Assembly: GCA_003693705.1 (NCBI GenBank)
Contig: RBZT01000478.1
Span: 1 to 48,632 of the forward strand
Direction: 5' to 3'
DNA: 48,632 nucleotides
Source of the DNA: Polymyxa betae A26-41
Taxonomy: Eukaryota > Protista > Endomyxa: Phytomyxea
Shown here: positions 1 to 45,508 of the stretch, piece by piece
Layout of the letters: every line of letters begins with the position of its first letter
How positions within the stretch are numbered: the stretch's first letter is position 1
Notes under the pieces: generated by a model
Seen by the model: only the letters and a program-made list of their open reading frames with translations
What the model was told of the DNA's origin: nothing
Database searches by the model: none
Made by a program: the position numbers and the translations under genes

Positions 1-169
1 GAAATAGAAAAGGGGAAGGACTGAATATAAGGCAACGACAAATGTATTAGAAAGGAGGAAGAGGAGGAGAAGGTAGGTGAGAGGCAAACTTAGATGATAC
101 GGAATGCTCGACGAGACGTCAGGAGGAGGAAGTCGATCGAGATCGGGTATACAACTACAGTAGCTAGAT

Positions 170-1549
170 TCACGGGACGAAACACTGTGACGGGATGTAG
201 GAACTGCAGGACAGGGTCATGACAGTTTGCGATTGAGCGACCCAGTTCTTCGGTTGGTACTGCATGGCAACAGAGTCAGGGACGACAGCCGGGGCGCCTA
301 AAGGGGTGCCCGGCTCAAGTTCGGAGGCAATAGTACGAGCCTGCTCCGAGGCAGCACGATCCAAAACAATCGGCCAATCTGCAACCGCTTCTCGCAACAC
401 ACGAGAAACCAGTTGACGCTTGGCATCGAGAGTCGGCTGACACCGAATACACTCACAGACAGGGCGAACCAAACCCGGAGCAAACGCGCCACGACCACGT
501 CGACACTCGCCATACAGATCGATATACTGAAACCTTTCTTTAATAGGTTCCTGTTCTTGGATTTCTTCAAAAACTTGCTCGATCGACCAGTTCGACGTAA
601 CGATAAAATATTGCGGACGAATCTTCATGTAACCACGCTTGGGCTGCACAAGAACAGGATAGAAATCAGCCCACTCCTTCAGATCCGTCGCGTTAAAATG
701 CTCAGTAATGTTACGTTTCGCCACCTCGGCCATATAGACGATCGGCTCGTCACGATAACCATCCCACCACTTGTTGGCGCCTTTACGATAAACTTGATCT
801 TTTGGGAAAAAAACATCAACAAAATAACTTTTTCCCACATTAGAAGGACCATGAATACACAGATTACGGCGCGCGGCAAGGTTGGGAAGCGAACGTGACG
901 CCAGATACTCGTTCCGATCGGTGATCAGCGCATTCGGATGACGCATCCGCATAGAAGGGCAGACATCATCCCACTTAAACGAGCGATTTAAATCGAACGC
1001 CGCCTTCGCGATCTCCTTGAAAGCCTGCTTATGAGCAGGGCGAAGCGGACGAACACCACGCTCTTCACAGTCCCATGTAGGGTTGGGACCTTCCTTGTTA
1101 GGAAGTTCGGTACCTTTCGTACAATAACAAAAACAATTCCAACGCGAATGCGCGTAGGTCGTCTTCTGGCCATCAGGCAACACGTTGGTGACATTATCAA
1201 GATGCGCGTCTTCAATCCCGAGTTCGGTCTTGAGAGTACGACCACGCATCCCATATCCGACTTCGACATAGCATTGAAGATGGGGGCCTTGCCGCTGAGT
1301 TAACTCGCGCCCGAAAACCAAATACCGACACCAATCCTTTTCGATTAGCGATACAAACGCCGCCACACGCTCTTCATGCGTCTCGTCGGTGTAGTGAATC
1401 GTAACCAGCCAATACTTCGCCTGCTTGTTGAGAGTGGGATCGGCGTTAGGGTTACGCCGCGGAGCACCCGCACCACGACGGCGGCCTCCGTGATTGTTGC
1501 GAGGCCGCGCGGGGGCATCCTCAGCCTCAATATCTAAAAAATTGACCAT
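170..1549 (-). CDS. rep: CRESS-DNA virus-type replication initiator Rep (HUH endonuclease + SF3 helicase), intronless, about 459 aa from ATG 1549 (ORF open to 1606)
   Basis: RCR motif I WLVTIHY, motif II PHLQCY, motif III YCTK. Walker A GPSNVGKS, KWWDGY, Walker B-like IVYMAE, LKEWADFYP, motif C IVTSN, Arg-finger-like KERF. Order and spacing match circo-like Reps. Confidence 0.93.
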   Translation of the reverse strand: MVNFLDIEAEDAPARPRNNHGGRRRGAGAPRRNPNADPTLNKQAKYWLVTIHYTDETHEERVAAFVSLIEKDWCRYLVFGRELTQRQGPHLQCYVEVGYGMRGRTLKTELGIEDAHLDNVTNVLPDGQKTTYAHSRWNCFCYCTKGTELPNKEGPNPTWDCEERGVRPLRPAHKQAFKEIAKAAFDLNRSFKWDDVCPSMRMRHPNALITDRNEYLASRSLPNLAARRNLCIHGPSNVGKSYFVDVFFPKDQVYRKGANKWWDGYRDEPIVYMAEVAKRNITEHFNATDLKEWADFYPVLVQPKRGYMKIRPQYFIVTSNWSIEQVFEEIQEQEPIKERFQYIDLYGECRRGRGAFAPGLVRPVCECIRCQPTLDAKRQLVSRVLREAVADWPIVLDRAASEQARTIASELEPGTPLGAPAVVPDSVAMQYQPKNWVAQSQTVMTLSCSSYIPSQCFVP

Positions 1550-1707
1550 TATGAGAGTGAAGTTGAAACCTGGGACCATACTTGATAACTGTGCCGGCGC
1601 CGGCACACAGGTTTCAAAAGTCCGCGACTGGCGAAGAGGGGTCCCGCGAGGATTTCCACCAACCAGATCCTCGGGTTCGCGCTAAACTTGAAACTTGTTA
1701 TCTGTTA

Positions 1708-1786
1708 ATCACCCGTCATATATAATACACCCGCGGAGGGCTGCGCACCGCCCGCGGGCCCCGCTAGCGCGGGGATGACGGGTGAT
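1708..1786. promoter_or_regulatory. Putative Rep origin/promoter: branched stem-loop
   Basis: Perfect 12-bp inverted repeat ATCACCCGTCAT (1708-1719) / ATGACGGGTGAT (1775-1786). It encloses hairpins CCCGCGG/CCGCGGG (1730-1736/1752-1758) and CCCCGC/GCGGGG (1759-1764/1769-1774), plus an unpaired ATATAATACA (minus strand TGTATTATAT; TATA-like and nonanucleotide-like). Confidence 0.55.
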
Positions 1787-2018
1787 CTCGCCGGCCCGCA
1801 AGCGGGCACCCCGGCTCGGGGTCAGGTCTCTTGGCAGCCGCGATCGTTAGGACAGATTAATTTACAGGCCGAGGCGCTGACGCGCCGGGCCTGAACCCAA
1901 TAAAATTGGTGAATGGGGGGGCGTTGGCTTCGCCTTGGCCGTCGGGTCCGCTGCCCGCAGGCAAAAAGCGCCTGCGCACGCGACCCTCCTCATCTATTCG
2001 CAGCTTGGGCTCGCTTAA

Positions 2019-2142
2019 TCCACTGGAGGTATCCAGTGGAGTTGTTCTCCAGTGGAGGAGTTAGCTACAGTGGAGTTGTTCTCCAGTGGAGGAGTTAGCT
2101 ACAGTGGAGATCATCTAACCTTAAATTTAATATCCAGTGGAG
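2019..2142. repeat. Iteron-like array: CAGTGGAG x6, including two tandem copies of a 34-bp unit
   Basis: CAGTGGAG at 2034, 2050, 2068, 2084, 2102 and 2135. 2034-2067 is identical to 2068-2101. Core TCCANTGGA is palindromic (also TCCACTGGA at 2019). Confidence 0.85.
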
Positions 2143-2212
2143 ATCATTTTCATTAAATGAATAAAGAATTTATATTAGAAGAAAGGGAATATAGGAAACA
2201 CGTCACGAACAT

Positions 2213-2482
2213 TCAAGCCTGTATAGACTTTAAATATTCTTCTGCTTCTTGATATGTCTTAAAGGATTTATCTATTCTTAAATCTTTACGTTTCACTTGA
2301 ATTCTATATGTATTCCTATCTGTGATATGAATTGTTATTTTCTTATAATTAGGGTTCTGTTCGTTCTTCTTTTGGTAATATCCATTAAAGTATTCCTTTC
2401 GTTTTTGATAGTCGCATTTGTGGCATATGTTCTTATTATTCTTTAATTTATTTTCCGCTGAATTACAGATTTTACAGACCAT
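2213..2482 (-). CDS. Small basic protein, 89 aa: N-terminal CxxC...CxxC Zn-binding motif and C-terminal AP2/integrase-arm-like DNA-binding segment
   Basis: CKIC...CHKC and YRIQVKRKDLRIDKSFKTYQEAEEYL. Very AT-rich and intronless. A homologous decayed copy lies at 23.8-24.1 kb. Confidence 0.7.
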   Translation of the reverse strand: MVCKICNSAENKLKNNKNICHKCDYQKRKEYFNGYYQKKNEQNPNYKKITIHITDRNTYRIQVKRKDLRIDKSFKTYQEAEEYLKSIQA

Positions 2483-2618
2483 TAATTTTATTACACCTTA
2501 TTTTTTAAAATTAATTTTGAGTTTAAAAGAAAAATATATTTGGGCGGAAAATTTTTTTAGATTTGATATTTTTAGAAATTGGGAATTGGTAAATGACAAT
2601 CTGGGTATTTTTTTGAAA

Positions 2619-2641
2619 TTAGGGTTTAGGGTTTAGGGTTT
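2619..2641 (+). repeat. Interstitial telomeric tract (T)TTAGGG x3
   Basis: ttagggtttagggtttagggttt. Confidence 0.85.
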
Positions 2642-2813
2642 ATTACGTTATTGGGTGTTATAACGTGATATTATTGAAAATGGAAATTGAAAAATGGCAA
2701 ATTGAAAAATTAACAAAAGCGGTTTTTGAGATGGGCGAAAGGTCGGTTTTTGTATGGGAAAATGAACTTGTGGGAGGAATTCATACAGGCTCGCATTTTT
2801 GAAATCTATTTAG

Positions 2814-3141
2814 GCGTTTGAAAGTAGAGTCCCGTTGCCTGCCACCATGCCGCTCAAGGTAGTTGCGGGATTCGCTCCGCAGCCTCCAATTCCTCTCATG
2901 GCGCCTCGTGGGGCTGCAGGAATACCTGAAGCGGTTGCGGCTGTATTCGCAGCCCCTCCCCCTGCGCCGGGGTTGGTGTGGTTCCTCCACCTGCGATTGC
3001 GCTGTGGCGCAACACCAACGATGTCATTCGGCTCAGATAGGGTATCTGTGCCGCTGGTACAATACTACGGCTGGGATCGTGCCTGGCGACCACTTTCAGG
3101 AACAGCGCAGGAAGTTCCAAAACTTTCTGCGAGGATTGTAA
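2814..3141 (+). pseudogene. Frameshifted copy of exon 2 of the Ala/Pro-rich gene at 6.2-7.0 kb
   Basis: Near-identical DNA to 6635-6970 with small deletions that split the frame. Exon 1 is missing. Confidence 0.75.
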
Positions 3142-3719
3142 GAAATAAAATAAATGTTGTTTTTTCATCTCTCATTTACTTTCAACAAATCGGATAGATT
3201 GTAGCAATTGGAAAGTTATCACTACTGAATAAACACTTCTTGCAATCTGTTCAGTGGATCGTCTTTTCATCAATGTGTTCAGATTCAATACTGGCGTTGT
3301 CTTCCACTTATTGAAATAAAACAAGAAACCTTTTCTATATAATGATGTCATCAATGAAACAAATACTGTATTTTAAATAAAACCTCATAAGACCCAATAA
3401 GGTGTCGTCTTTGAAATCGATTCTCAAAAATGACGAATTATAAGACCCTATTATTCTATGGGTTCCTAGTAGGAAGGCACGACCTGATTTCGGATCTGGG
3501 GGTATCCGCATTCGGCAAGTCGATCACAGCCAGCCTTTGTTCACGTAGGAGACAAACGACACAGACATCCTAAAGCTGTTGAATAAAATTACTTTACCAC
3601 TGAAGCTAATCACTGGACAGTTTTGTTTGTTGGCTTCCTAGGGCTTTACAAATAAAATAGAGCATATTTTATAGAATGACGACTTAAAGTTTCTTGTGCC
3701 CTATTATTTGCAGCAATTT

Positions 3720-4200
3720 ACTCACTACTGAAGACATTATCGATAAAAAAACGCTTCGGAGGTGGAAAACGGCAAGGAATTACGTCTTTCCATTGGATGG
3801 TTACAAAAATTCAAGAAACGCCATCATCTGCAAAGTTTCGTTTGCATGGAGAGGCGTCAGAGGCTGACTTCAAAAGCGCTTATGATGCTGTCCTAGACAT
3901 CCCCGCAATTGTCGTGCTCTTTAATCCAGATGATATTTCATGTTTGACGAATCTGCTCTTTACTTTTCTGGAAAGCACATTCAAAGAAATAAAGATAACC
4001 TGTCTCTCGAACATTCAGATTCTGGCTTCAATGGTCATGCCATTATAAGGAGGAATGACTGGAGCAAATTACCAGTTTGAATCCCTTTCGTTCTCGATTT
4101 TTCAGTCGTTTACCCTGTCAAATTCGGCGTCTCCCGGAAACGGTGATAGCGACACGTCTGGATCTGACCATCCCAACAGATGCAAATGAATATTGGATTA
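3720..4200 (+). mobile_element. pogo/Tc5 (CENP-B HTH, DDE_1) transposase relic, copy 1
   Basis: GKELRLSIGWLQKFKKRH..(frameshift)..FRLHGEASEAD resembles the pogo/Tigger HTH-CENPB consensus (SxGWLxxFKxRH...LHGEAxxAD). Confidence 0.65.
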
Positions 4201-4919
4201 CAAGAATTGATGTCAACGATGAACTCATGTGATGCCGCCGAACTTTGTATGCATCGACAGCATCGACACCCAAATGACCAGCATCAGGATTACACACATT
4301 ACGGAGACGTTATGCCTGGAGATAAGCACAGTGCCCGGTTCTCACTTCCAGGCGCGCTGAGGCCCCGCCACACAGTTTGAGTTCGGCGCCAAAAGAGGCG
4401 CACGTTTTCGAATTTCGAGGGTTCTCTACAGATTTCTCTCACTCTCTGCACATAACCTAACTGCGACATGGATCCACACATGTAACATGAAAATGTAACA
4501 TGTTACACATGTTTGCAGATCTGAGTACAACAATCTCTATTTTGCCCAAATACAGAATTGTCCTTCCAAGTCAAATCCTGTCCAATATATTCCACATGTC
4601 GAGGATGTTTTGGACTCCTCTAATCTTTCATAGTCCTTTGGGTAGTTGCTGTCTATCGATGGCGCCGGCGCCATGTCGAATCCAAATCCGGACATTGCCC
4701 GCTCTGCTGTTAGCATTCGAAGCATCGTAGGGAGCGACGTCGAGCGCGATGTAAGAAGCTTTAGCATTCATTTGCATCGTTTGACATTTTGCTGAAAAAT
4801 GCTGCTGGCGAAGCGTTGTGCCGAATTTGAAAAAATGTTATCGGAGAGCAACGAACAAATGCTAGAACAGTTCGAGAAGCTGCACGTTCTCGATGAGCAA
4901 GGGAAGTTGTGACTTCCTG

Positions 4920-5660
4920 AAACTATTATACGATCCCAGCCTTGTGGAGGCACAAAGTCTGAGTTCCTATACCAGCGATAAAAAGGCTGAAGAAGGCTAC
5001 AAATAGGCTGACATTGAAGCTGGATTATGCCAGCGGCTTCGTCGGACGCCTTGGGGGCAAGGCTGGCAATCAAGCTAGCCACCATCATCGACTTGGGATC
5101 AGACCCAGACGAAGCAATTTCAACTCCTCATGATCATATCTGAATTGACAGCTGGCGCCGCTTCGCAGTGCAACTGTACAAACTATGGAAAATGCTTGCA
5201 GGCTGTGAACGAAGCGAGAGACCCCTTATTGCCCCATAAGGCTTATCTAAGATCTGGGTGATTTAACAGAGGGAGTCTTCGCCGCCCTGCAATGTCACTG
5301 TGTAAGCCTCATGTTACGACAATATGACGCGTTTGTAGTAGTACAGTCCTCCTCTATAACGACACTCTTTATAAAGACAGCCCCATAGAAGCCAGATAAT
5401 GTTACTTCGTACAAAATGGCCAACCTCCTCGCTTTGAAAACTTTGGGTTTTATAGAGGTTGGAAAATCAGGCTGCGTGATGCGATGGAGGATGTATCTGA
5501 TCTCATCGAGATGTTTATCTATATCCAAATTCCACTTGATTTGCTTTTTTTGTGCTCGGTTAGAGCGGAACAATGTTGTCTGGATGAGATTGGGATTGGA
5601 TTGCACTAATTGTTCGCACCTTTCGGTAGAGTGGGCGGCACAGTCGCCCTAATGCGGTAT
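4920..5660 (-). mobile_element. Possible highly decayed Ty3/Gypsy RT/RNaseH fragments
   Basis: GVEIASSGSDPKSMMVASLIASLAPKASDE resembles the RT primer-grip/thumb (GhvIsxxGixPdxxkVxaixxxxxPk). KQIKWNLDIDKHLDEIRYIL...PDF...GFYGAVF resembles connection/RNaseH. The fragment order is not canonical. Confidence 0.3.
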
Positions 5661-6158: not shown

Positions 6159-6970
6159 TTGACTTTTGAGCACCTGCACTGCGCAACCCATTCATTTCCA
6201 CTTGCAGCATTCCTATTAACGGCTGGCCTGCCTCCATCCCCGAATTTCGTGAATGCTGCCGCCAACAACCCAAACCTGGCCATCAACACACCTGCAGTTC
6301 CGGCAGGTGGAGTCACGGCCGCCGTCGTCGGTCGGCAATCCAGACGAAGGCGCAGGATCCGCGAGATCCATGCACTTTCTCCCGCCTACATCACCGATCA
6401 GGAGTTAGGCCTCGCTGAGATTCGAACCAGCGCGGCTGTAGCACAAGCTGCAGGCCCTGCGGTAGCGCCTCTGTGGTTTGCTCCGGCGTTTGCCCAGGCG
6501 TTTGCCCTGGCAATGCCGGCGGCGTTGGCACCGATAGAAGGCCGGATCGAAAACATTTCCCGTTTTCAAGCCAACTATCAGGTAAGCATTTGTAATTCGA
6601 ATCATATTAACAATTGGTTGAGAAATCTATTTAGGCGTTTGAAAGTAGAGTCCCGTTGCCTGTCACGATGCCGTTCAAGGTAGTTGCGGGATTCGCTCCG
6701 CAGCCGCCAATTCCTCTCATGGCGCCTCGTGGGGCTGCGGGAATACCTGCTGCGGTTGCGGCTGTATTCGCAGCCCCTCCCCCAGCGCCGGGGGTTGGTG
6801 TGGTTCCTCCACCAGCGATTTCGGTGTGGCGCAACACCAACGATGCCATGACGTCGGCTCAGATAGGGTACCTGTGCCGCTGGTACAACAACACTGCAAG
6901 GATCGTGGCTGGCGACCACGTTCAGGAACAGCGCAGGAAGTTCCAAAACTTTCTGCGAGGATTGGATTAA
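6159..6970 (+). CDS. Ala/Pro-rich hypothetical protein with a weakly Mug135/DUF1773-like C-terminus; start uncertain; intron 6582-6634
   Basis: A phase-0 GT(AAGC)...TTTAG intron joins ...RFQANYQ to AFESRVPLPVTMPFKVV...IGYLCRWYNNTARIVAGDHVQEQRRKFQNFLRGLD. Confidence 0.5.
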
Positions 6971-7559
6971 TTAAATAAATTCTACCGAGATAACACACAT
7001 ATTCTTGTTTTTTCATCTCATTTACTTGGCAACAATTTTGATAGATTGTAGCAATTGGAAAGTTACCACTGATTAAACATTTTTTGCAATCTGTTCATTG
7101 GAACGTCTTTTCACTTCAATAATATCTCCAGATTCAATACTGGCGTTGTCTTCCATACTGATCGAAGGAAAACCAGAAACCTTTACCATATAATGATGTC
7201 ATTAATGAACACATATTAGAAAATGGCACCCCATAAGACCGAATAAGGTGTCGTTTTTGAAATCGATCTTTAAAACGACAAAATTATAAGACCGAGTATT
7301 ATACAATGGGTTTCTTGTAAGAAGGCATGCCGGCCCAACAATCTCAAAGCCCGATTTCGGATTCTGGGGATAATCGCATTCGGCAGGTCGATTATTGCCA
7401 AGTTTTTAGTAGGACAGCCTAAAGTTGTTTGATAAAATTATTTTACCACTGAAGCTAATCACTGGACATTTTGTTTGTTGGCTTCCTAGGCCTAACAGCT
7501 ACTATAATTACAAACTAAATAGTGCACATTTTGTAGTGACAACCTGAAGTGGGCGAAAT

Positions 7560-8100
7560 CCCCACCTCTGCAACTTCATTTCTTTAGATTCTTGTGCCCA
7601 CCTAATGCAACAATTTACTCATTACAGAGGACAAAATAGTTCAAAGCTTCGGAGGTGAAAAACGGCAAGGAATTACGTCTTTCCAATGGACGGCTACAAA
7701 AATTCAAGAAACGACATAAGCTGAAAAGATTTATTTTGCATGGAGAGGCGTCAGAGGCTGATTTCAAAAGTGCTTATGATGCTGTCCGCTACGTTCCCGC
7801 AATTATCGTGCTCTTCAATCCAGATAATGTTTCAAGCTTGACGAAAATTTTAACAGCTCTTTTCTGGAAATAAAGCTAACCAATTTCTCAAACGTTCAGA
7901 TGCTGGCTTCAAAGGACATGTGATTATAAGGAAGGATGACTGGAGCACATTACCAGTTTGAATCCCTTTCGTTCTCGATCTTTCAGTTGTCTATCCTGTC
8001 AAGTTAGGCGTCTGCCGGAAACGGTGTTAGCGACACGTCTGGATCTGGCCATCCCAACAGATGCGTATGAATATTGGAGTTACAAGAATCGATGTCAACG
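7560..8100 (+). mobile_element. pogo/Tc5 transposase relic, copy 2
   Basis: KELRLSNGRLQKFKKRHKLKRFILHGEASEAD...NPDNV...ALFWK matches the HTH-CENPB region and the degenerate NxDETxLFWK region. Confidence 0.7.
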
Positions 8101-8505
8101 ATGAACTCATGTGACGCCGCCGAACTTTGTATGCATCGACACCCGAGTGACCAAATGAAGGATTAAAAGAGATGTTATGACAAAAGCACAGCAGTGCCAG
8201 GCTCTCAGTTCCAGCCGCGCCGAGGCTCCGCCACACAGTTGGAGTTCGTCGCGCCTACAGAGGCGCACGTTTTCGAATTTCGAGGGTTCTCTACTTCTCT
8301 GCGACTGTGCGACTTGTATCCACACATGTATAACATGTTACACATGTTCGCAACATGTTCGCAGTAATACTGAATACATACAGCAATCTCTATTTTGCCC
8401 AGCTACAGAGTTGTGGCCTCCTTCCAAGTCAATATTTTCCACATGTCGAGGATGTTTTGGACTCCTCTAATCTTACATATCTTATTGTGTAGTGGCTGTC
8501 TATCG

Positions 8506-9436
8506 ATGGCGCCGCCATGTCACCGCCCGTTCTTGACAGCACTTTTCCGCCAGCATCTGACGACGACCAGCGTCGGGCGCTACGTCCACCACTTCGAGAA
8601 GACGACCTCGACCATGGACGAGGCTCGCACTCTGATGCAGACCGCCGCCCATGGAACAATGGTCTTTGTCGCTTTCACCTTTGGTTTCGTATTCCCAAAT
8701 TTTAGCTGTTTAGATTATTGCTGATTATCAATCGAACGGCGTTGGGAGAGGCGATGGGCGTGTCTGGTCCAGTCCAGCTTACGAGAACATCTATGTGACG
8801 TTCATTCTGCATCCGAATTCATTCACCGATGCGGTTCGAATCAATTTAGGCGTCGGCGTTGCTGTGACGAACGCGATCCGAGCGTTTGGCGTAGCCAATG
8901 CTGGCGTCAAATGGCCGAACGACGTCTGGGCGGACGGGAAGAAGCTGGCCGGCGTTTTGGCGAATACCATGGTGACGTCGGGGAAGTTAGTGTTGATGGT
9001 TGGTATTGGCATCAATGTTAACGAGACGATATCGTCGAATCCGAATTCGGACGTTGCCCGCTCTGCTGTCAGCATTCGAAGCATCGTAGGATGCGACGTC
9101 GAGCGCGAAGTAAGAAGCTGTAGCATTCATTTGCGGCGTCTGACATTTTGCTGAAAGATGCTGCTGGCGAAGCTTTGTGCCGAAATTGAAAAAATGTTAT
9201 CGAAGAGCAACGAACAGATGCTAGAAGAGTTCAAGAAGCTGCACGTCCTCGATGGGCAGAAAATTGTCGTCATGCCGAGAAAACTCGAACATCGCGACGA
9301 TCATTACGAAGCGGTTTGTATTGGCGTCGCCCCGACCGGGGAGCTTCGTGTTCGTGTCAATGGTGTTGAGAAGCTTTTGTCGTCCGAGGAGGTCAGCATT
9401 CGCCCGCGTGTCGATGCTTCCCTTTCAGGACAATAA
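8506..9436 (+). CDS. Biotin-protein ligase (BirA/BPL catalytic + C-terminal domain); introns 8662-8713 and 9110-9157
   Basis: STMDEA, ADYQSNGVGRGDGRVWSSP, KWPNDVWADGKKLAGVL, VGIGINVN, and C-terminal GVAPTGELRV...SEEVSIRP. Both introns keep the frame. Confidence 0.88.
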
Positions 9437-9731
9437 TAAGCGGTGGTCATGAGCTCAAATGAGAGACCAACAGATGCTTTCAATCTTTGTTCATATCTCA
9501 AGTAAGGTATAGTCTTTCGATTCGGCAATCTTTTTCGGTAAATTCTGATAATTCTTTAGTTTCGTCATACAGTCAATTTACCCAGTAAAATGTCAAGACA
9601 GCAATAATTATAATCTATTAGGTCGCGTAGTTTATTTACGATTTCGCCAAAGAGAGAGCTTCTCGGAATTATTGGCCTCAGATTGGATCAGAGCGTGAAG
9701 TTGTTTTTCAGTGTGATAATCCTGTTAGGGT

Positions 9732-11096
9732 TTAGTCGCGAACAATAAGCGTCAGAGGTGATGCTGAACCGACCTCGAGCATAGCCAGAGCACGCCGACC
9801 GCTCGATTCAAAATGCATGTTGCCGCTCTTACTATCGGTTTTGATCAGAAACGCCATGAACTCCAGCGGGAGCAGGACGCTGTACAGGCAGACGGCGAAA
9901 CATTCGTCGACGACCTCTTTAGAAGTATGGGCCAAACCGATCTCGTCCAGATACAGACGAAGCCATCGATCCATGTGTTCGCGTCGCAACTGGACATGGC
10001 ATCAACGAAGGCGAAACCCTAAACCCTGGCATCTTCCTCCACCTGTATTGGTACGCTGGTCCCGATGAAATAGCAGAGATCGAAGAAGATCGGGCGGACA
10101 CACGACGCCTGCCAATCGACCAGGCGGAACCGGCCGTCATCGGCCACGATAATGTTGCCGCAGTGCAGATCGCCATGGGCCATCACGGTCGGGAACCTGT
10201 GCAAGACCTGGGTTTGGATCTCGGGTAGTTCGGCGAGGCCGTATTCGATGAGGGGGCGCTGGGCTTCGACTTCGGCCGGATTGTATTGGCGGCTGGTCTG
10301 CTGCCAGATTTGTCCGATCACGAATTTCTGCAGCAATGACACAACGGGGCCAGCTGAACCATCCAATGCCAGCTGCCTCCATTCCGGGTCGTCCAGACCT
10401 GCCAGCAGCCTTCGTCAGCAAAACGAGCAACGACGGGGCGACGTCTTTCACCGATATGCAACGAATCACGATGGAATCGGGCCAGTTCGACGATGAACGC
10501 GTCGATCTGTTGAACGGAGTTGATACCGCTGGAAACGGACGGCCTCGTTCCATGAATGAACTCCATCAGCAGCAGATAGTGGCCCGTCCAGTGCACGCCG
10601 GTGTAGACAAGTTCCGGGCAGAGACGACCACGGCGAAGTCCGGCGATCTCATTCAGGTGTAAACCGTATACGATGGAGATGAAGGTCTCAGCGACGCCGC
10701 CAGGTGACGATTTGCAGATGAGATAACGTGTCTGGACCCGGTTAAGCCGGGGGACGCCTTCCGCACTATGAACAATATCAGCAGAGCCGAAAACCATCAG
10801 AGGCGGTTGCACTCGATGAATGAAATCTTGCGGATCGTCGACATCTTTCCGTCGCCCAAAGGCTCCTGACCGACGATGACAACGGCGCGTTTCAGGATCA
10901 TAGACAGCGATTGAGAAGTGATTTCGTCTATATGCAGGACGGGTGGTGCCAGCCAAGGCGGCAACAGATGCCGCCGACGTGCGACGCGGCAAACGGCCAC
11001 CACTGGACTGCTGAATCGAACATATCGAACGAACGAATGCAGTAAACAGATGATAACAAGGCGAGCGGCTGATATCACCGCCCCAATTGAGACCAT
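9732..11096 (-). CDS. APH/choline-kinase-like phosphotransferase, multi-exon
   Basis: HGDLHCGNII...RLVDWQ (Brenner motif), YLLLMEFI, LARFH and DLCYF across spliced ORFs. Confidence 0.78.
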
Positions 11097-17901: not shown

Positions 17902-18075
17902 AAACCCTAACCCTAACTCAAACCCACAATTCACAGCACCAATTTCTCCATTAAATTCAATCTTGTAAGAAATTTGGACTATGCTCAAGCTTACACCATC
18001 AAACTTGTAAGAGGTCTGGACCTATATGCTCAGGATTACACGATTGTGATGATCATGTAGTTGGGGTTAGGGTTT
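17902..18075. repeat. 174-bp MITE-like segment with 17-bp telomeric inverted termini
   Basis: AAACCCTAACCCTAACT (17902-17918) vs AGTTGGGGTTAGGGTTT (18059-18075), 16/17 match. Internal imperfect direct repeat (cttgtaaga..tggac..tatgctca..ttacac). No TSD seen. Confidence 0.5.
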
Positions 18076-18123
18076 AGATCCTTAGAGACAGCTGATAAGT
18101 CCGAGCCGTCTTGCCATTGACAA

Positions 18124-19833
18124 ATGGGTTATCGGGAGGACGGCGAGATTCGCGACGCACGCCGCCGCCGTCCGGATCGTCACCGTAGCCGCAGTCGCAG
18201 CCGGTCCCGGCGCCGGCGCCGCACACGAAGCCCCCGCCGCCCCCGCTACGACGACGCCCGACGCCGCGAGCGCCGACGGTCGCCGGACCCGCCCCGAAAG
18301 GTCGAAGAGGTGAAGCTGGTGGCACCCCACGACCCCAAACCACCCCAGCCCCCTCTCACCACCGTCGTCGAAGTCGCTGTCGACAATGACGACCGCAGCG
18401 AAGAACTCGACGAGCAGACCTACGCCGAGCGCGTCGAGCAGCAGCTGCAGAACATTCTCGGCGCCGACCAGGACGCCAACCTCGAAGCCGAGCTGCAACG
18501 CCGCCGAGACCGCCGCCGCGCTATGCTCGAGGCGATGACAACGACGACGAATAATGACGTTCACGAAACGAACGGCGTCGTCGAAGAGACGAACGTCGTC
18601 ATCGAAGAGACGAACGTCGTCATCGAAGAGACGAACGTCGTCATCGAAGAGACGAACGTCGTCGAAACGGAACCAGCTGTCGACGAAGACGTCAAGTCGC
18701 CGCCCTCCGACGACGACGTCGACATTTTCGGCGATTCGCCGATCGCCGCCGTCGCCCTCACCGATCGCGTCGCCGTCAGCGCCGCCGTCGACAACAAACA
18801 CCTCACCGACAACTGGGACGACGCCGAAGGCTACTACAGCTTTCGTCTGGGCGACGCCCTGAACGAGGGCCGGTACGAGGTGTTCGCGTTCCAAGGCCGC
18901 GGTGTGTTCAGCACGGTCTTACGGGTCCGAGATCGTCAGGCCGGGAATCGCGAGCTCGTCGTGAAGGTGATTCGGCAGAACGACGTCATGTACAAGGCCG
19001 GGCTGAAGGAGGTTCAGCTGCTGAAGGTGCTGGGCGCCTCCGACCCCGATAATCATCGCCATTGCGTCCGCCTCTACAGCCATTTCGAGCATCGCGGCCA
19101 TCTCTGCCTCGTGTTCGAGCCGCTCCATCTCAACCTGCGCGAAGTCCTCAAGAAGTACGGCGGCGTCGGCATCAACATCGACGGCGTCCGCAGCTACGCC
19201 CGCCAGCTGTTCGTCGCCCTGCGTCTGCTGAACAAATGCGAGATCGTTCACGCCGATATCAAGCCCGACAACATTCTCGTGAACGCCGCCAAGAACGTCC
19301 TGAAGCTGTGCGATTTCGGGTCGGCCGGCATGATCACCGATTGCGACATCACGCCGTACCTGGTCAGCCGATTCTATCGGGCGCCGGAGATCATCCTCGG
19401 GCTGCCGTACGGGCCCCCGATCGATGTCTGGTCGGTCGGCTGCGTCCTGTTCGAGCTGTATACGGGACAGATTTTGTTCAAGGGCGCCGATAACAACGAG
19501 ATGCTGCTGAGGATGATGGAGCTGCGCGGGCGGTTCCCGCCGCGCTTGCTGCGGAAGGCGACGTTCGCCGCGCAGCATTTCGACGAGGAGTTCCTGTTCG
19601 AGCGGCGCCGGGCCGATAAGGTGAGCGGCGGCGAGCTGAAGACGAAGATGCGCATTGAGCGGCCGATTCGCGACCTGCAGACGCTGCTGAGGCAATCGGC
19701 CGGGCGTCTGACCGATGCCGAGATGAAGTCGTTATCGCAGCTGAGAGATCTGTTAGAGAAATGTCTGATACTGGATCCGGCAAAGAGAATCACGCCGGAG
19801 CTGGCGCGATCGCATCCGTTCTTGCAGCAATGA
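18124..19833 (+). CDS. PRP4K: Serine/threonine kinase PRP4 (PRPF4B), intronless
   Basis: RS-rich N-terminus, LTDNWDDAEGYY, GRGVFSTV, HADIKPDNILV, KLCDFGSA, ITPYLVSRFYRAPEIILG. Confidence 0.96.
   Translation: MGYREDGEIRDARRRRPDRHRSRSRSRSRRRRRTRSPRRPRYDDARRRERRRSPDPPRKVEEVKLVAPHDPKPPQPPLTTVVEVAVDNDDRSEELDEQTYAERVEQQLQNILGADQDANLEAELQRRRDRRRAMLEAMTTTTNNDVHETNGVVEETNVVIEETNVVIEETNVVIEETNVVETEPAVDEDVKSPPSDDDVDIFGDSPIAAVALTDRVAVSAAVDNKHLTDNWDDAEGYYSFRLGDALNEGRYEVFAFQGRGVFSTVLRVRDRQAGNRELVVKVIRQNDVMYKAGLKEVQLLKVLGASDPDNHRHCVRLYSHFEHRGHLCLVFEPLHLNLREVLKKYGGVGINIDGVRSYARQLFVALRLLNKCEIVHADIKPDNILVNAAKNVLKLCDFGSAGMITDCDITPYLVSRFYRAPEIILGLPYGPPIDVWSVGCVLFELYTGQILFKGADNNEMLLRMMELRGRFPPRLLRKATFAAQHFDEEFLFERRRADKVSGGELKTKMRIERPIRDLQTLLRQSAGRLTDAEMKSLSQLRDLLEKCLILDPAKRITPELARSHPFLQQ
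18583..18663 (+). repeat. 21-bp coding tandem repeat (EETNVVI) x about 3.9 in PRP4K
   Basis: gaagagacgaacgtcgtcatc repeated. Confidence 0.9.
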
Positions 19834-19859
19834 TGTACTTATATTATTATCTACAAACC

Positions 19860-22197
19860 CTAAAACCCTAGGTCGGGCAGATCGATCCGAATTCGCACCG
19901 TTCGTTTGTTGTTGACGACAGGTTCTGGCTGGTCGAGGCAATCGGCGAGGTTTCGAACGCCGAACATCGACGTCGTCTTCGAGATGGTCAGAAGCTGATT
20001 CAGATCGGGCGACGTTCGCTTCAGGAACGGCTCGCTGGCGCTCGGACGCAACGCCGGCGGGCGGCGGCGGCGTTGCCCTTCCGGACATTCCAATTTCGTG
20101 CATTTTATGGCGTTGGGGAGATCGATCGGCGGCAGCTCGACGCCGGGCGGCGTCGAGCGGAACGACGGCGCGATCGCCAGGCGTAATCGCGTCCTGGGCT
20201 TGGCGACGATCGGCGCCCACAGGCGCCACGACGCCGCTCCCGCGCTTGATAACGCCCCGAGAAACGCGCCTTCGGTCGAATAGAACTCGATCACATGCCG
20301 CGAGAGCGCCGCGACCACCACCTGGTCGTGCTGGACCACGGCCGTCAGTTGACGGACGGGCGCCGTGCGCAGTGCGATTCGGCCAAGGCGACGATAGGGC
20401 GGCGCCAGCTGGACTGCGTCGATCGTGCCGGTGACGGCGACGAATGCGGTCGCGATCGTCGCCGAATACGCGATAGCTGCCGCCTTCACGAGCTTGCCGT
20501 TCGAGAGCGACTCGGTCGCGAACCTTGGCGGCGCCGTCTGGCCGCCGAGCGACCAGACGCCGACCACGCCGATGGCGTCGACGCTGACGAGGACGTCGAG
20601 ATCCGCGACGATCTCGGCGGCGACGATCGCGTGGCCTTGAGGCAGGGCAAAGTCCGCCCGGCGCTCGGCGCCGTCCAGGACGGCGCCGTGGCCGCCGGCC
20701 GACACCATCACGGCCCGCATCCGGTCGGCGACGATGGCGGCGGAGAATGCCGCGATCGGCATCGACAGCGCAAAGCGCTGCCTGCGGACGCCGTCACGGC
20801 CGAGCGCGTGCTCCAGGACGCACAGCGACAGACGCCCCAGCGACATCGAATACAGCAGGTCGCGATCCAGTACGACGCGCAGGGCGCGGACCGCGGCGTG
20901 GTGATGCTGGCCCGGGAGCCGATGCAGGAGACGGCCGTGATCGATATCGATCAGGTAGACGAAGCCGAGGTCGTCGCCGACGAAGGCGCTGGATGGGGTC
21001 AGGAGCGCGGCGGCTGTGATGTTGCTGGCGCAGAGATCCGGAGAGCGTGATACGAGCTGCCCCTGCAGGACGCTCCAGACGACGAGGCGTCGACCAAGGC
21101 CCAGCACGATCCGATCCGATTCCACGCAGAAGAGGGCGGCGCCGATCGGCGGCGACGGAAGCGTGCTGGGGCGCCAGTCGCGATCACTGTCGCACGACGG
21201 CGTGTAGACCGGCGCCGTCGTACTGGCCCCGATGGCGATCAGGCGATCGCCGAGGCTGGCGATCTTCCCGTCCGAGACCGGCGTCAGCATCGACTGGACG
21301 ACGGCGAACCTGCGGCAGTCCCAGATCTTGAGAATCCTGTCGCCGGCGGCAGGTGAGCAAAACCCTAGGAACCCTAGAACCCTAAAACCCTTACCCCTCT
21401 CGATCCAGGCTGGCCAGATAATAAGGGGGCGTCCGCCCCGGGAATCGGCACGAGACGATCGGGGCGGCGTGCGCCGCATCGATCGCCTTCACTGCGGCGC
21501 TGCCATCCGACGTCCACAACGACAGGCGCCCATCGTCGTCGCCGCACGCCACGATCCTCGATCGGGGCCAGTACGCCACGCTTCGGGCCGCTTTCGTGAT
21601 CATCGCCGTCTGCGCGAACCGCTCCACGTCCCAGATGCGAACGGTGCCGTCGGACGCCGCGCTCGCCACCGCCGCCGTCGTCGTACCCGCCCCGCCGCCC
21701 AGGGCAATCAGTTCGTGCAGGCGACGGCCTCCGTGCCCATCGTACTGGCCCAGGCGTGGCTGTTTCTGCTGGAGGGCGTAGACGGCGATCCGACCCGAGG
21801 CCGAGCCGGCGATCAAACGCGTCCGGATCGTGCAGAGGCAGGTCGTGAGCGACGGCGTCCGAATGTGGCGGACCTGTCGCAGCGGACCAGTACAGCGGCT
21901 GTCGAAGGCGTCGCGCCAGGTCTGGATGCCGGCCGCGGAGGCGGTTACCAGGTCGCCCAGGTCGTCGAGGTCGGTGGTCGCGAGCGCCGTGATTTGTTTC
22001 GCGCTGATCGCGGACGCCTTCGTCATTATGGAGCGCGCGTTGTAAAGGCGCACGACGGATGGTTTGCTGTCGTAGACGAGGAGGGCGTCGGCGGCGGCGT
22101 TCGTCAGCGCCAGCTTAGTCGATGGAGCGCTGCCCAGAGAGCCGACCTGTAACGACGTCGTGGAACGATACGGCTGCTCGAGGGTGCCATTCGCCAT
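19860..22197 (-). CDS. WD40-repeat protein; intron 21337-21394
   Basis: SAASDGTVRIWD, CGDDDGRLSLW and ASLDREG|ILKIWD joined by an in-frame GT-AG intron. Confidence 0.8.
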
Positions 22198-23493: not shown

Positions 23494-23598
23494 CGCACCC
23501 TTTGTTGTGGATGAATTCCATCTGAGCGCTCGAACAGGCGTCATATAGCGTCGGATCGGTCACACGACTGCAACAAATTTCATTCGATGAGAACGCTC

Positions 23599-24257
23599 AG
23601 ATTCGCAGCGATGTTGTTCAGAGCAGGTTGGAGAATAGTAACCCTAACTGGAATTTCTGTATTCCGGCGACAGCGACGCTTCAGAGAACGAAATATGCGG
23701 GACAGTTGGGCTCGGTCTTTCATCATCAGAGAAGCAATCGCAAACGAAGTGAAACCTCACCGCCCTAATCCCCGGGTTGGTGCGTGAGAGTGTTTAATTG
23801 GATTATTGTTAAATATTCCTCTGCTTCATTTTATATGATTTAAATGACTTATCAATTTTTAAGTCGTTGCGTTTTATTTGAATTCTAGGTTGAAAATGAA
23901 TTTCGATTTTTTTATAATTAGGGTTTTGCTCGTTCTTCTGTTGCCATTCTTTTTTATATTGTCTGCGCTTCACTCTCTGGGTTTCGTTATAGAATTTCTT
24001 CTGCTCTTATCTTGGTCGTGAAGTTTTCTGTGTTTGTTAAGGCTGTCTCGTCTCATTTCTTTATTACAGACTTCACAATTGATTCTTTCGGATTGGTATT
24101 TGCTCTGTCTGCTTTATTGGCGTACAAAATTATTTATTTGACACCTTATTGGTTAGGGTTAGGGTTATGGAAAATGACGGATTGGGATTTTTTACTCGGG
24201 AAAATAATCTACACCTCCATCTTTTTAGCTTAGATTCGCAGCGATGTTGTTCAGAGC
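23599..24257. mobile_element. About 600-bp insertion flanked by 26-bp direct repeats, carrying a decayed Zn-finger/AP2-like gene
   Basis: AGATTCGCAGCGATGTTGTTCAGAGC at 23599-23624 and 24232-24257. Inward-facing telomeric motifs at 23639-23648 and 24152-24167. Confidence 0.7.
23790..24127 (-). pseudogene. Frameshifted homolog of the 89-aa ORF (2213-2482) with a C2H2-type finger
   Basis: Minus-strand pieces RINCEVCNKEMRRDSLNKHRKLH / KKEWQQKNEQNPNYKKIEIHFQPRIQIKRNDLKIDKSFKSY / EAEEYLTIIQ, compared with YQKKNEQNPNYKKITIHITDRNTYRIQVKRKDLRIDKSFKTYQEAEEYLKSIQ. Confidence 0.85.
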
Positions 24258-25485: not shown

Positions 25486-26223
25486 TCAGACATTGCCAAA
25501 GAGCGAATTCGTGATTTTCGGCTCGATTTTGTGACTAGTGAATATCGAAGCACAGGCATCCGAAATCGGGAGCATTTCCGTTGCTTTTTTAACGCCATTG
25601 GTGGTCTTGTCGGAATGGCTCTTGTGCTCCCTCTTTTTCTTCTTCGACGGTTTGCCATTCGGTACGGGAAGCTTCGCTCGAAGCTTCTCTTGTTCTTCCG
25701 GGCTGGGGTTCACAATAACGAAATTGTCTTCGATGGCTTGCTCTGAATCAATCGAAGCGCGAAGCTGAGCATGACAAGAAAGACAAGTCGCTGACGGGAT
25801 TTCTTTCAAAGCTCTTTCAGATAACACGCAACCGCATTCGGTCGAAATGAAAAACCTGTACTTGCCATTACCCGGAAGCATCGTGATAGGGCAGCAGAAG
25901 ACGAGCTTATCAGCTGTTTTCTCGGATGGATTGTCATCAGGAGCAGGCGTGAATTTCAAATCTTGAACGTCTTTCAGCGATTTGATATGTAAGAACTTGT
26001 CAACATGATTCTTGCTGATCAGATATTGTATCAAGGCGTCCTTGTTGTAGAGCATACCGAGACGGCAGGCGACGATCGGGGCCTGCAGGCGATTCTGACT
26101 AATGGCGCAGATAAACCAACGCGCTGCAGACGTCTCGGCAACGACATTGTCATCGGCCTTGGTAGATTTGCGCTTCTTAACGAGATCGCGGCGGCCGGGA
26201 ATCGAGCCTCCATCACAACCCAT
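25486..26223 (-). CDS. RTF2: Replication termination factor 2
   Basis: MGCDGGSIP, CAISQNRLQAPIVACRLGMLYNKDALI, HIKSLKDV, CPITMLPGNGKYRF, CGCVLSERALKE. Confidence 0.95.
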   Translation of the reverse strand: MGCDGGSIPGRRDLVKKRKSTKADDNVVAETSAARWFICAISQNRLQAPIVACRLGMLYNKDALIQYLISKNHVDKFLHIKSLKDVQDLKFTPAPDDNPSEKTADKLVFCCPITMLPGNGKYRFFISTECGCVLSERALKEIPSATCLSCHAQLRASIDSEQAIEDNFVIVNPSPEEQEKLRAKLPVPNGKPSKKKKREHKSHSDKTTNGVKKATEMLPISDACASIFTSHKIEPKITNSLFGNV

Positions 26224-44338: not shown

Positions 44339-44459
44339 ACGGTCTTTGTCACAGAGCCCAAACTGTAGTCGGAAACCACCTGATGCAGATCCAGGGTAAT
44401 CGCGTTGTCCACAGTGTAGAAATCTCGCCTCTTTGCATCACAAAAAGGCACGTCTGAGC
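44339..44459 (-). repeat. Second copy of the MULE-like fragment (matches 47903-48002)
   Basis: cggtctttgtcacaga...cctgatgcagatccaggg...tccacagtgtagaaatc...aaggcacgtctgagc occurs in both places. Confidence 0.8.
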
Positions 44460-45220
44460 GATCATCGTCGAGCTGGCCCGATTTCATCGCGGTTCGCTAC
44501 ATATCGGTGAAAGACGTCGCCCCGTCGTTGCTCGTTTTGCTGACGAAGGCTGCTGGCAGGTCTGGACGACCCGGAATGGAGGCAGCTGGCATTGGATGGT
44601 TCAGCTGCCCCGTTGTGTCATTGCTGCAGAAATTCGTGATCGGACAAATCTGGCAGCAGACCAGCCGCCAATACAATCCGGCCGAAGTCGAAGCCCAGCG
44701 CCCCCTCATCGAATACGGCCTCGCCGAACTACCCGAGATCCAAACCCAGGTCTTGCACAGGTTCCCGACCGTGATGGCCCATGGCGATCTGCACTGCGGC
44801 AACATTATCGTGGCCGATGACGGCCGGTTCCGCCTGGTTGATAGGCAGGCGTCGTGTGTCCTCCCGATCTTCTACGATATCTGTTATTTCATCGGGACCA
44901 GCGTACCTATTCAGGTGAAAGATGCCAGGATTTAGGGTTTTGCCTTCGTTGATGACATGTCCAGTTGCGACGCCAGCAAATGGATCGATGGCTTCGTCTG
45001 TATCTGGACGAGGTCGGCTTGGCCCATGCTTTTAAAGAGGCCGTCGACGTATGTTTCGAAGTCTGCCTGTACAGCGTCCTGCTCCCGCTGGCGTTCATGG
45101 CGTTTCTGATCAAAACGACAGTAAAAACGGCATCATGAAATTTGAGGCGAGCGGTCGGCGTGCTCTGGCCATGCTCGATGTCGGTTCAGCATCACCTCTG
45201 ACGCTTGTTGTTCGTGACTA
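44458..45220 (+). pseudogene. 5'-truncated copy of the APH-like kinase
   Basis: Begins mid-gene (IVELARFH). HGDLHCGN is retained, DWQ has become DRQ, and there are small indels relative to the 9.7-11.1 kb copy. Confidence 0.8.
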
Positions 45221-45508
45221 AACCCTAACAGGATCATCACACTGAAAAACAACTTCATGCTCTGATCGAATCTGAGGCTATTAATTACAAGAAGCTCTCT
45301 CTTTGGCGAAATTGTCAGTAAACTACACGACCTAATAGATTACAATGATTGCTGTCTTGACATTTTACTGAGTAAATCGGCTGATAACGAAACTAAAGAA
45401 ATTATCCGAAGTTACCGAAAAAAATTGCCCAATCGAAAGACTATACCTTGGGATATGAATAAAGATTGAGTGTTTTGTTCGTCTCTCATTTGAGCTCATG
45501 AGCATCGC

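Follow-up and report, generated by a model that had tools for sequence, protein, structure and literature searches.

The left edge of contig RBZT01000478.1 of Polymyxa betae carries a rolling-circle replication gene (rep) of the CRESS-virus type, with no capsid gene in view. A preliminary description proposed a capsidless mobile element or plasmid-like replicon, or a recent endogenous virus with its capsid gene left of position 1. Which of these is it, and does it belong to the host chromosome? The window below is the whole stretch analysed, 48,632 nucleotides. On balance, we lean towards an integrated, capsid-lacking CRESS-virus replicon of an unclassified lineage, present in single copy in an intron of the plasmodiophorid host and probably decaying.

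Architecture and lineage of Rep

Three features define the rep gene.

225..1549, minus strand: Rep gene; HUQ-type Y1 endonuclease, oligomerisation domain, SF3 helicase, and C-terminal Cys domain
725..739, minus strand: Walker B (VYMAE); first acidic position Ala, second acid retained
374..517, minus strand: lineage-specific C-terminal domain; C...CxCxxC followed by a helix

The frame is uninterrupted from 170 to 1606 on the minus strand. Rep most likely starts at the ATG at 1549, where the N-termini of the relatives P0226 and P0228 align. HUH (RCR) motifs I (WLVTI, 1411-1397), II (PHLQ, 1285-1274), and III (YCTK, 1126-1115, with a single Tyr, Y1) are fused to an SF3 helicase with Walker A (850-827), motif C (601-590), and an Arg finger (541-530), which is the make-up of a CRESS Rep. 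The motifs named in the preliminary description are thus all in place, except for the first Walker B acid. Pfam identifies RNA_helicase (E 1e-8) and, weaker than its cut-off, Viral_Rep (E 6e-4). The AF2 model of Rep (pLDDT 84.9) retrieves Vientovirus Rep (E 1e-13) and PCV2 Rep (3e-9) in Foldseek, and the structural matches are circovirus and redondovirus Reps. Both the fold and the top matches argue for a viral relic.

The first Walker B acid position (728-730) is Ala; D or E occupies it in 135 of 139 homologues and Ala in none, and the canonical two-acid motif is absent. No difference is listed here for the allele in run X2. D216 of PCV2 Rep is probably the second Walker B acid, whose counterpart is retained in our Rep. 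P0103, from the wider lineage, has Ser at the first position. The PCV2 D216A protein is a null mutant (PMC8406172, section 8). The change to Ala may be tolerated.

In the C-terminal domain, C349, C365, C367, and W392 are invariant in all five aligned proteins, and residues 361-400 are modelled with pLDDT 76-93. The tail profile matches 5 of 416 fetched proteins, three of which are its own seeds. The domain likely binds Zn.

Relatives of Rep are 34-46% identical to it. In trees that contain mostly unnamed proteins, Rep groups with P0226, P0228, and P0074 (clade support 100/99). The nearest Atlas clusters are Cressdnaviricota, and the best named sequence match is Crucivirus-520 (30%). No match is found among 72,556 plasmid records. 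By sequence, Rep falls in a lineage that is unclassified and carries a Cys domain at its C-terminus. Single-protein scans reveal no relatives in IMG/VR or JGI metagenomes, and alignment scans return distant viruses alone (22-43% identity, partial segments). The contigs of P0226, P0074, and the more distant P0103 reach 4133, 4274, and 4138 bp and come from unrelated collections; these relatives are known here from Rep proteins and contig sizes alone. Their sizes fall in the crucivirus genome range (PMC7468197, section 6), in line with a viral source.

Chromosomal setting and truncation

The limits of the insert are set by two features.

1..224, minus strand: end of a separate, LTR-like repeat, recognised by depth and by other contexts in runs X3 and X4
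2800..2801: right junction, from paralogue alignment and an X4 contig

On the right, the insert ends abruptly at 2800|2801 within a host intron, in a duplicated host segment. An uninterrupted paralogue of this segment continues across 6621|6622, and 2801-2900 is 96% identical to 6622-6721. The X4 contig covers 2714-2830 with zero differences, 30 letters beyond the joint on the host side. Host-type DNA thus begins at 2801, as previously suggested, and the element reaches 2800 instead of ending at 2641.

Read depth was compared with that of the flanking genes, as the preliminary description had advised. In assembled contigs of public runs, in which summed contig depth does not equal copy number, rep has a depth of 195-274 in X1 and 11-14 in X2, and the host flanks have 156-195 and 11-13, respectively. 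In each run rep thus has the depth of a single-copy gene, so that in neither is it an episome or a product of recent amplification. The X1 and X2 alleles lie at the same locus and show 3 differences per 918 bases, all non-synonymous, which is expected by chance 46% of the time. Runs X3, X4, X5, and X12 leave rep uncovered at low and patchy depth and hence give no evidence for absence.

In X2, a 12.9 kb contig with Rep at its end holds 225-1142 and then different DNA. The repeat 1-224 is missing from this site, and 641 bases separate 225 from host-type DNA. The same contig bears a paralogue of the window's host DNA. A viral-type gene thus sits in a host chromosomal setting in independent samples (X1 and X2, with the right junction in X4), with an uninterrupted paralogue; the locus is chromosomal and is no assembly chimera. 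A chimera, which the preliminary description had placed at the 2.6-2.9 kb junction, or a contaminating virus contig would fit a window that begins in a repeat and that none of the listed contigs spans whole. However, the independent 12.9 kb contig, the host-like depth in two runs, and the X4 contig across the right joint speak against it, and we give this explanation next to no weight.

The repeat 1-224 has a depth of 10x (X1) and 23x (X2) single-copy, and 1-224 or 1-216 is found in other contexts in X3 and X4. It starts with TG on the minus strand at 224, which we interpret as an LTR-like end. The final 17-18 codons of the rep frame and its stop codon come from this repeat. Because the repeat cuts the Rep tail at 224|225, the ORF is not intact, contrary to the preliminary description, and Walker B is changed as well. 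The description also took the region left of position 1 for upstream DNA; position 1 is downstream of rep.

The capsid question

None of 104 non-Rep ORFs from 30 CRESS contigs matches the window, and the 17 other frames of 1-2900 contain no Pfam family. Capsid-like ORFs of the 30 contigs, one of them crucivirus-like (L001; type judged by eye), give no match to a tombusvirus-like capsid. No jelly-roll capsid gene is therefore found on this molecule within the window, and none between rep and 2801, as had been reported. Since only 641 bases separate 225 from host-type DNA in X2, an adjacent capsid gene is unlikely, although these unread bases could still fit a 180-aa capsid (PMC7493932). The absence of an adjacent capsid gene, the chromosomal locus, and the small family with its link to a high-copy repeat (see below) disfavour a capsid gene left of position 1 and leave the mobile-element idea standing. 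The lineage's C-terminal domain occurs in 0 of 110 fetched loci, so no capsid-bearing genome of the lineage was found, which counts against a viral relic.

Candidate origin and repeats upstream of rep

The GC-rich DNA upstream of rep contains the following features.

1708..1786, minus strand: Y-shaped hairpin; 12-bp stem, two arms, unpaired 10-nt strand 1720-1729
1864..1918: GC-rich block common to about two other loci
2019..2142: 9-bp hairpin and six CAGTGGAG repeats, ~250 bases from the Y-shaped hairpin

The hairpin-rich region of the preliminary description is real (1690-2030, z -4.6). The Y-shaped hairpin within it has z -4.7/-5.0, and values below -3 occur in 1 of 50 control windows. It overlaps a TATA-like motif, and only in the X2 allele does its unpaired strand match the pattern of the NANTANTAN nonamer. 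The hairpin is a candidate rolling-circle origin. It is internal to the element, not terminal.

The iteron-like repeats are also present: CAGTGGAG occurs six times in 2034-2142 and seven times in the whole window (1.0 expected), in a 34-bp unit repeated 2.2 times. These repeats are putative protein-binding sites. The CAGTGGAG unit has no match in viral contigs, and an Rfam scan of 1-3200 yields no match. Sigma-70 promoter matches are near chance and irrelevant here. The 31-base node of the GC-rich block (1864-1894) is at 2.5-2.9 single-copy units, about three copies, and another contig is collinear with the element over 1864-1918, 2016-2057, and from 2160.

The small gene and its AT-rich repeat

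Beyond the repeats, composition breaks sharply from 52-61% GC over 225-2030 to 28% over 2213-2800.

2213..2482, minus strand: small ORF, 89 codons, 28% GC, two CxxC pairs, co-oriented with rep
2483..2800: AT-rich upstream segment; host-type AACCCTA x3 (2620-2640), high-copy repeat, right end of the insert
23809..24227, minus strand: second small-gene and AACCCTA unit, frameshifted, without Rep, between two host genes

The co-oriented small Zn-type gene is as first described, and its AP2-like nature is not confirmed: no Pfam AP2 domain is found, Foldseek gives no match at E 0.001, and the best VIA score is Z 5.5. Other VIA rows (Z 4-5.5, including dsRBD- and HPF-like folds) are too weak for use. 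The predicted protein consists of a long helix, three strands, and a helix (pLDDT 68), and it likely binds nucleic acid. It has no homologue outside the genome (Atlas matches <0.9, Foldseek none) and is present in 0 of 110 fetched loci.

The "telomeric" tract at 2619-2642 is a real AACCCTA triplet and is host-typical rather than a telomeric mark. AACCCTA occurs 31 times in the window (2.5 expected), clustered at host loci. We rejected a telomere or subtelomere role, as these clusters are interior; the P. brassicae telomere is TTTTAGGG (PMC11191646). Summed depth over 2401-2800 is 118-209x (X1) and 18-49x (X2) single-copy, to which subtelomeric copies may contribute. After normalisation, the depth of this end in X1 exceeds that in X2 by a factor of 4.3-6.6, and three control repeats agree within 0.8-1.1. 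Other copies of the repeat diverge after 2763, and a 20-mer from this end has two matches, both chance. The Rep element is thus physically linked to an AT-rich repeat that recurs without Rep. In the second unit, ~21 kb from the Rep locus, 23809-23943 is a 73% DNA copy of the small gene, and a 30-bp direct repeat flanks the copy. Its alignment with 1620-2229 scores 24, a value that 103 of 300 shuffles also reach, so no match is detected there.

The genome contains two or three further, diverged Rep loci, making three to four per run. They match in patches of 39-66 bases at at least 80% and are therefore not recent copies. The proposed check of copies and termini shows a multi-copy family with a between-run depth difference; shared termini and insertion polymorphism are not seen from contigs.

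The same family could instead reflect a transposon, in which a few HUH+SF3 master copies mobilise short, AT-rich, non-autonomous copies, tens to about a hundred, sharing the 2400-2800 end, as in Replitron-1 and Replitron-N1. The several Rep loci, the threefold 1864-1894 block, and a contig that preserves the order of hairpin block, CAGTGGAG repeats, and 3' flank of the small gene are consistent with this, as are the Rep-less copy 21 kb away, the 4-7-fold between-run end depth with agreeing control repeats, the sharp junction, and the host-type motif upstream of the small gene. Autonomous Replitrons are likewise low-copy (PMC10288648). However, the Rep copies are diverged singletons, not near-identical, and this copy is damaged and lies at the same locus in two samples, with its origin-like hairpin internal. 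In addition, the Rep-less copy lacks a match to the region upstream of rep, and with divergence after 2763 no common right terminus is seen, the left end being out of sight. We regard this explanation as possible but rather doubtful. The same tentative standing applies to its wider form, a third group of eukaryotic rolling-circle transposons, derived from CRESS viruses by capsid loss and carrying a Zn-type tail, and, again tentatively, to a Rep that would mobilise a large, isolate-variable family of short AT-rich elements with a small DNA-binding gene.

Alternatively, a viral rep and origin may have been captured by, or landed in, an AT-rich repeat moved by another enzyme. The composition break, an imperfect 17-bp inverted repeat bounding 2208-2799, the direct repeat around the Rep-less copy, and the absence of the small protein from the 110 fetched loci fit such a passenger. 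Yet at another, diverged locus the GC-rich block is again joined to the flank of the small gene, which places any capture before the family diverged, and the inverted repeat, being one of 86 such pairs in 3.3 kb, could have arisen by chance. We consider this unlikely. More improbable still is that one component of a multipartite virus, or a satellite encoding Rep alone, integrated here, with free circles accounting for the excess X1 depth. Several sequences do have short non-coding blocks in common despite divergent coding parts, the AT-rich end is over-deep in X1, and multipartite or subgenomic CRESS molecules are known (PMC7468197, section 6), but Rep has no excess depth in either run and the shared deep segment is not the origin-like hairpin.

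For an integrated viral replicon, further support comes from single-copy depth at one locus in X1 and X2, from the signs of decay (the LTR-like truncation and the Walker B Ala), from the internal position of the origin-like hairpin, and from the divergence of the other Rep loci; a rep element of P. betae has already been reported, of 168 bp, at RBZT01000513.1:41484-41651 (PMC10193959, Table S4). Against it, the 28%-GC small gene recurs without Rep, a dead fossil leaves the X1 depth excess unexplained, and the frame runs for 441 codons without a stop and keeps every other motif.

Proposed origin and significance

In the source replicon, Rep would have bound near the Y-shaped hairpin, its motif III Tyr would have nicked the nonamer-like strand at 1722-1730, and Rep would have unwound the circle as an SF3 hexamer. 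The linearised circle may then have joined the chromosome by Rep-assisted or illegitimate joining, which would explain the internal origin and the arbitrary ends. The capsid gene would have been lost during insertion or later. The CAGTGGAG repeats, like the small gene, would be part of the replicon or early acquisitions, as another locus has the block in collinear order, and the Rep-less AT-rich copies would be pieces or partners of the same family.

Even as a relic, the locus connects a plasmodiophorid host with a CRESS Rep lineage that is unclassified and otherwise represented by unnamed metagenome proteins, and it is a host lead for the 4.1-4.3 kb environmental elements. If Rep drives the AT-rich repeat, the element would be a eukaryotic HUH+SF3 transposon through which the genome of a root parasite could vary. 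Standing between CRESS viruses and Replitrons, it would then show, in a living system, a virus turning into a transposon without giving up its helicase, and this much-discussed route (PMC3198968; PMC10288648) would become directly testable. Our literature searches, with subscription journals mostly outside their scope, found no description of this Rep element or of HUH+SF3 as an autonomous transposon.

Comparison with known systems

The preliminary description held that HUH plus SF3 without a capsid fits nothing known, which is wrong. Alphasatellites have an HUH+SF3 Rep without a capsid. The pCRESS and Pyropia (P. pulchra) plasmids have the same make-up (PMC6668415), and Rep-only endogenous elements, including multi-copy ones, share it (PMC3198968). 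The geminivirus-like Rep transposon of Tuber melanosporum has separate transposase ORFs and 37-bp TIRs (PMC3198968), whereas Rep is the sole enzyme in our unit.

Helitrons also combine an HUH protein with a helicase in eukaryotes, and, as with them, there is no target duplication at the right end here. Their termini are 5'-TC and CTRR-3', and the right end of our element fits neither. Helitron RepHel is Y2 plus SF1B (PMC10288648), whereas our Rep is Y1 plus SF3. Replitrons have a Y1 HUQ Rep related to CRESS Reps, with few autonomous and more non-autonomous copies (PMC10288648), but they lack a helicase and have short direct terminal repeats; no such termini are seen here, where the 1-224 repeat hides the left end.

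Cruciviruses and other Arfiviricetes-type CRESS viruses share with our Rep the HUQ motif II, YCxK, a KWWDGY-type helicase block, the NANTANTAN-type nonamer (in one allele here), and relatives on contigs of 4.1-4.3 kb. In contrast, our element has no capsid gene, its hairpin is Y-shaped instead of a simple stem-loop, and no capsid-bearing locus falls inside the Rep lineage.

Endogenous CRESS reps are known from the protists Entamoeba, Giardia, and Blastocystis, usually at <10 copies per genome (PMC3198968). Such reps, including a draupnirvirus-like rep of P. betae and that of Chromera, are likewise chromosomal, viral-type HUH+SF3 genes in several copies. Our locus differs from them in its near-full-length Rep, its origin-like hairpin, its unclassified lineage with a Cys domain, and the small gene and AT-rich, high-copy repeat joined to it.

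The Rep gene and its lineage

The left end of the window contains the following features.

1–224: repeat, starting with TG at 224 on the minus strand, 10–23 times single-copy depth
170–1606, minus strand: open frame of Rep
1708–1786: Y-shaped hairpin
2019–2142: six CAGTGGAG repeats and a 9-bp hairpin, ~250 bases from the Y hairpin
2213–2482, minus strand: small gene
2801: right edge, against host DNA

The frame at 170–1606 encodes a CRESS-type Rep, with Pfam matches to RNA_helicase (E 1e-8) and, under the family cut-off, to Viral_Rep (E 6e-4). The AlphaFold model (alignment of 140 sequences) has a mean pLDDT of 84.9, and its closest structural matches are the Reps of Vientovirus (E 1e-13) and PCV2 (E 3e-9). 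The alignment of two relatives begins at their own residue 1, which makes the ATG at 1549 the most likely true start. In accordance with the preliminary description, RCR motifs I, II (HLQ), and III (YCTK) agree with the homologue consensus, as do Walker A, motif C, and the Arg finger of the SF3 helicase. However, the first acidic position of Walker B (728–730) is Ala, and the homologues have D or E (135 of 139), Q (2), or S (2), never A. The change is not proof of death, because the related protein P0103 has Ser at this position, and PCV2 D216 probably corresponds to the Walker B residue retained in the window Rep. PMC8406172 describes PCV2 Rep D216A as a null mutant.

A search of 1.84 billion representatives placed P0074 first as a match to Rep (E 3e-52). 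A C-terminal tail profile, built from three proteins, picked two further proteins out of 416 fetched, and their clusters led to full-length P0226 and P0228 (46% and 40% identical in alignment). In a 38-row tree, whose rows were chosen from the neighbourhood and whose bootstraps are not fully settled, the window Rep, P0074, P0226, and P0228 form one clade (support 100/99); P0103 is placed weakly near it (63/19). C...CxC and a downstream Trp are common to all these proteins, and no member of the lineage occurs among 110 fetched loci. The longest contigs of the relatives are 4133, 4274, 4138 (P0103), and 2540 bases, and the three near 4.2 kb suggest putative unit-length circles. Among the fetched CRESS-type loci, L033 has two alike but distinct capsid-like frames (2–1210 and 3148–4770) beside one Rep, and L022 and L008 have two Rep frames each; the paired frames may be duplications or assembly joins.

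Integration and copy number

Assembled contigs of six public runs (19 listed) were compared, X1–X4 and then X1, X2, X5, and X12; the window may itself derive from sample X1. With one depth figure per contig, a rough guide to copy number only, rep (195–274 in X1, 11–14 in X2) is like its host flanks (156–195 and 11–13). The locus is chromosomal and single-copy.

An X2 contig of 12,895 bases has 225–1142 at one end (three differences) and is without 1–224; 641 bases further left it carries a piece ~90% like window 4952–5145. The 1–224 repeat, read as an LTR end, is missing from this contig and has an LTR-like TG end; therefore, the final 17–18 codons of the frame were inserted later. The Rep described as intact is thus open but damaged, both here and at Walker B.

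At the right edge, likeness to a duplicated host segment begins abruptly at 2801, and the paralogue is continuous across 6621|6622, within a GT-AG intron (read by eye). An X4 contig matches 2714–2830 throughout; 30 of its letters lie beyond the edge in host DNA, one under the bridging rule. We consider it extremely improbable that the locus is an artefact.

The tandem-type duplication itself (2801–4677 and 6622–8521; 78% overall, 96% at the start) contains by eye pogo/Tigger transposase-like remains at 3694–4050 and 7655–7870, with no such Pfam match. A 2-kb inverted duplication (8520–10500 and 44458–46433, 92%) carries biotin-ligase-like and APH/EcKL-kinase-like frames, and fragments of it recur at 4675–4899. 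Short MITE-like repeats with sharp loose ends (5352–5642 and about 3532–3565) have high depth in X1 and X2, in bins ~10 and 40–50 times single-copy. The host gene at 25489–26223 is 55% identical to Rtf2 of Spongospora subterranea and 52% to that of Plasmodiophora brassicae, which points to a plasmodiophorid other than these two, probably Polymyxa; PMC11191646 gives Spongospora, Plasmodiophora, and Polymyxa as the plasmodiophorids sequenced. An island of host genes at 18000–22000 has 57–71% GC (background 40–55%) and a third-codon GC of 0.82 versus 0.48–0.56 in two other genes.

Screening contigs of X1 and X2 at 80% likeness gave other Rep-like contigs of single-copy depth in both runs. One matches 913–952 and 1391–1431 (depth 204/14.5). 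Another locus, also in X5, appears to share ~39 exact bases around motif III (1113–1151) with differing flanks, hinting at recombination or DNA-level constraint; unitig arithmetic there gives 3.7–4.1 units, and one extra locus predicts 4. A contig matching 1106–1171 occurs in X1 only, and two loose contig ends continue in frame as Rep-like residues (read by eye). Therefore, X2 has three Rep loci and X1 four, the window's own included, all diverged. A node at 1864–1894 is common to ~3 sequences, and one contig is collinear with 1864–1918, with 2016–2057, and from 2160, in the 3' flank of the small gene.

The region upstream of rep

The hairpin-rich region noted earlier contains the Y-shaped hairpin (z −4.7/−5.0; 1 of 50 control windows fell below z −3). 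Its loop in the window allele fits none of four nonamer patterns taken from PMC7468197. In X2, a one-base change at 1729 in the unpaired strand yields an allele that fits NANTANTAN. Judged from sequence, the hairpin is a candidate origin, internal in position. The CAGTGGAG repeats had been called iteron-like; all six are present, but their distance from the hairpin exceeds that of typical iterons.

The AT-rich module (2213–2800) has 28% GC versus 52–61% for 225–2030. The 89-codon small gene encodes a protein with no detectable homologue or fold match; a frameshifted relative of the gene lies at 23809–24125 (73% DNA over 147 bases, 67% protein over 42 residues), followed by AACCCTA and no rep. 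Divergent host genes, ETHE1-like and SURF2-like as judged by eye, stand on either side of this Rep-less copy, whose N-terminal frame shows a C2H2-like finger in place of two CxxC pairs. The flanking 30-bp direct repeat (23595–23624 and 24228–24257) could be a long target duplication.

The AACCCTA tract had been taken for telomeric. We reject this reading and regard the motif as a host-type element, because it occurs 31 times in the window versus 2.5 expected (12-fold enrichment), in groups of two or three at host loci. In this it resembles a telo-box promoter motif.

Summed depth over 2401–2800, inflated by short overlapping contigs, is 118–209 times single-copy in X1 and 18–49 times in X2; the between-run ratio is within 0.8–1.1 for three other repeats and opposite, 0.44, for repeat 1–200. 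The difference between runs suggests that the AT-rich family is variable and perhaps active.

Search for a capsid gene

No capsid-like frame is detected within the window; the first description had noted none between rep and host-type DNA. At E 0.01, 104 non-Rep frames from 30 CRESS contigs have no match in it; 18 of them are capsid-like as judged by an R/K-rich start (242–550 aa, some cut by contig ends). Pfam assigns no family to 17 other frames of 1–2900. The suggestion of a capsid left of position 1 fares poorly, as the unread gap in X2 is 641 bases and must also hold the rep end and host flank. The case against an adjacent capsid is strong, not absolute, because capsids of ~180 aa exist (PMC7493932). 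That the element was a satellite or genome segment seems quite improbable.

Origin of the element

HUH plus SF3 with a DNA-binding accessory gene had been said to fit none of Helitrons, Replitrons, and CRESS viruses; PMC6668415 reports capsidless CRESS-type plasmids. Endogenous CRESS reps in protists usually number under 10 copies, with self-propagation proposed as a possibility (PMC3198968), and a 168-bp draupnirvirus-like rep is recorded for P. betae in PMC10193959. In the literature covered, largely outside subscription journals, we found neither this element nor any autonomous eukaryotic transposon with HUH+SF3 described; genome-wide surveys of EVEs may list the locus in their supplements.

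Our best reading, which we favour modestly, is an integrated circular replicon without a capsid. A source circle would have been nicked at the Y hairpin and linearised into the host intron, its capsid lost or never brought in; the LTR-like insertion and the Walker B change would have been acquired afterwards. Passenger capture of a viral rep by the AT-rich repeat is unlikely. The main competitor to an integrated replicon is a transposon family that Rep would drive and whose AT-rich partners would be non-autonomous, possible with a clearly lower probability: termini, masters close to identity, and fresh insertions did not come to light, but the pattern matches that of Replitrons. The AT-rich family can be likened to the Replitron family as described in PMC10288648, in which a few autonomous masters accompany more numerous partners.
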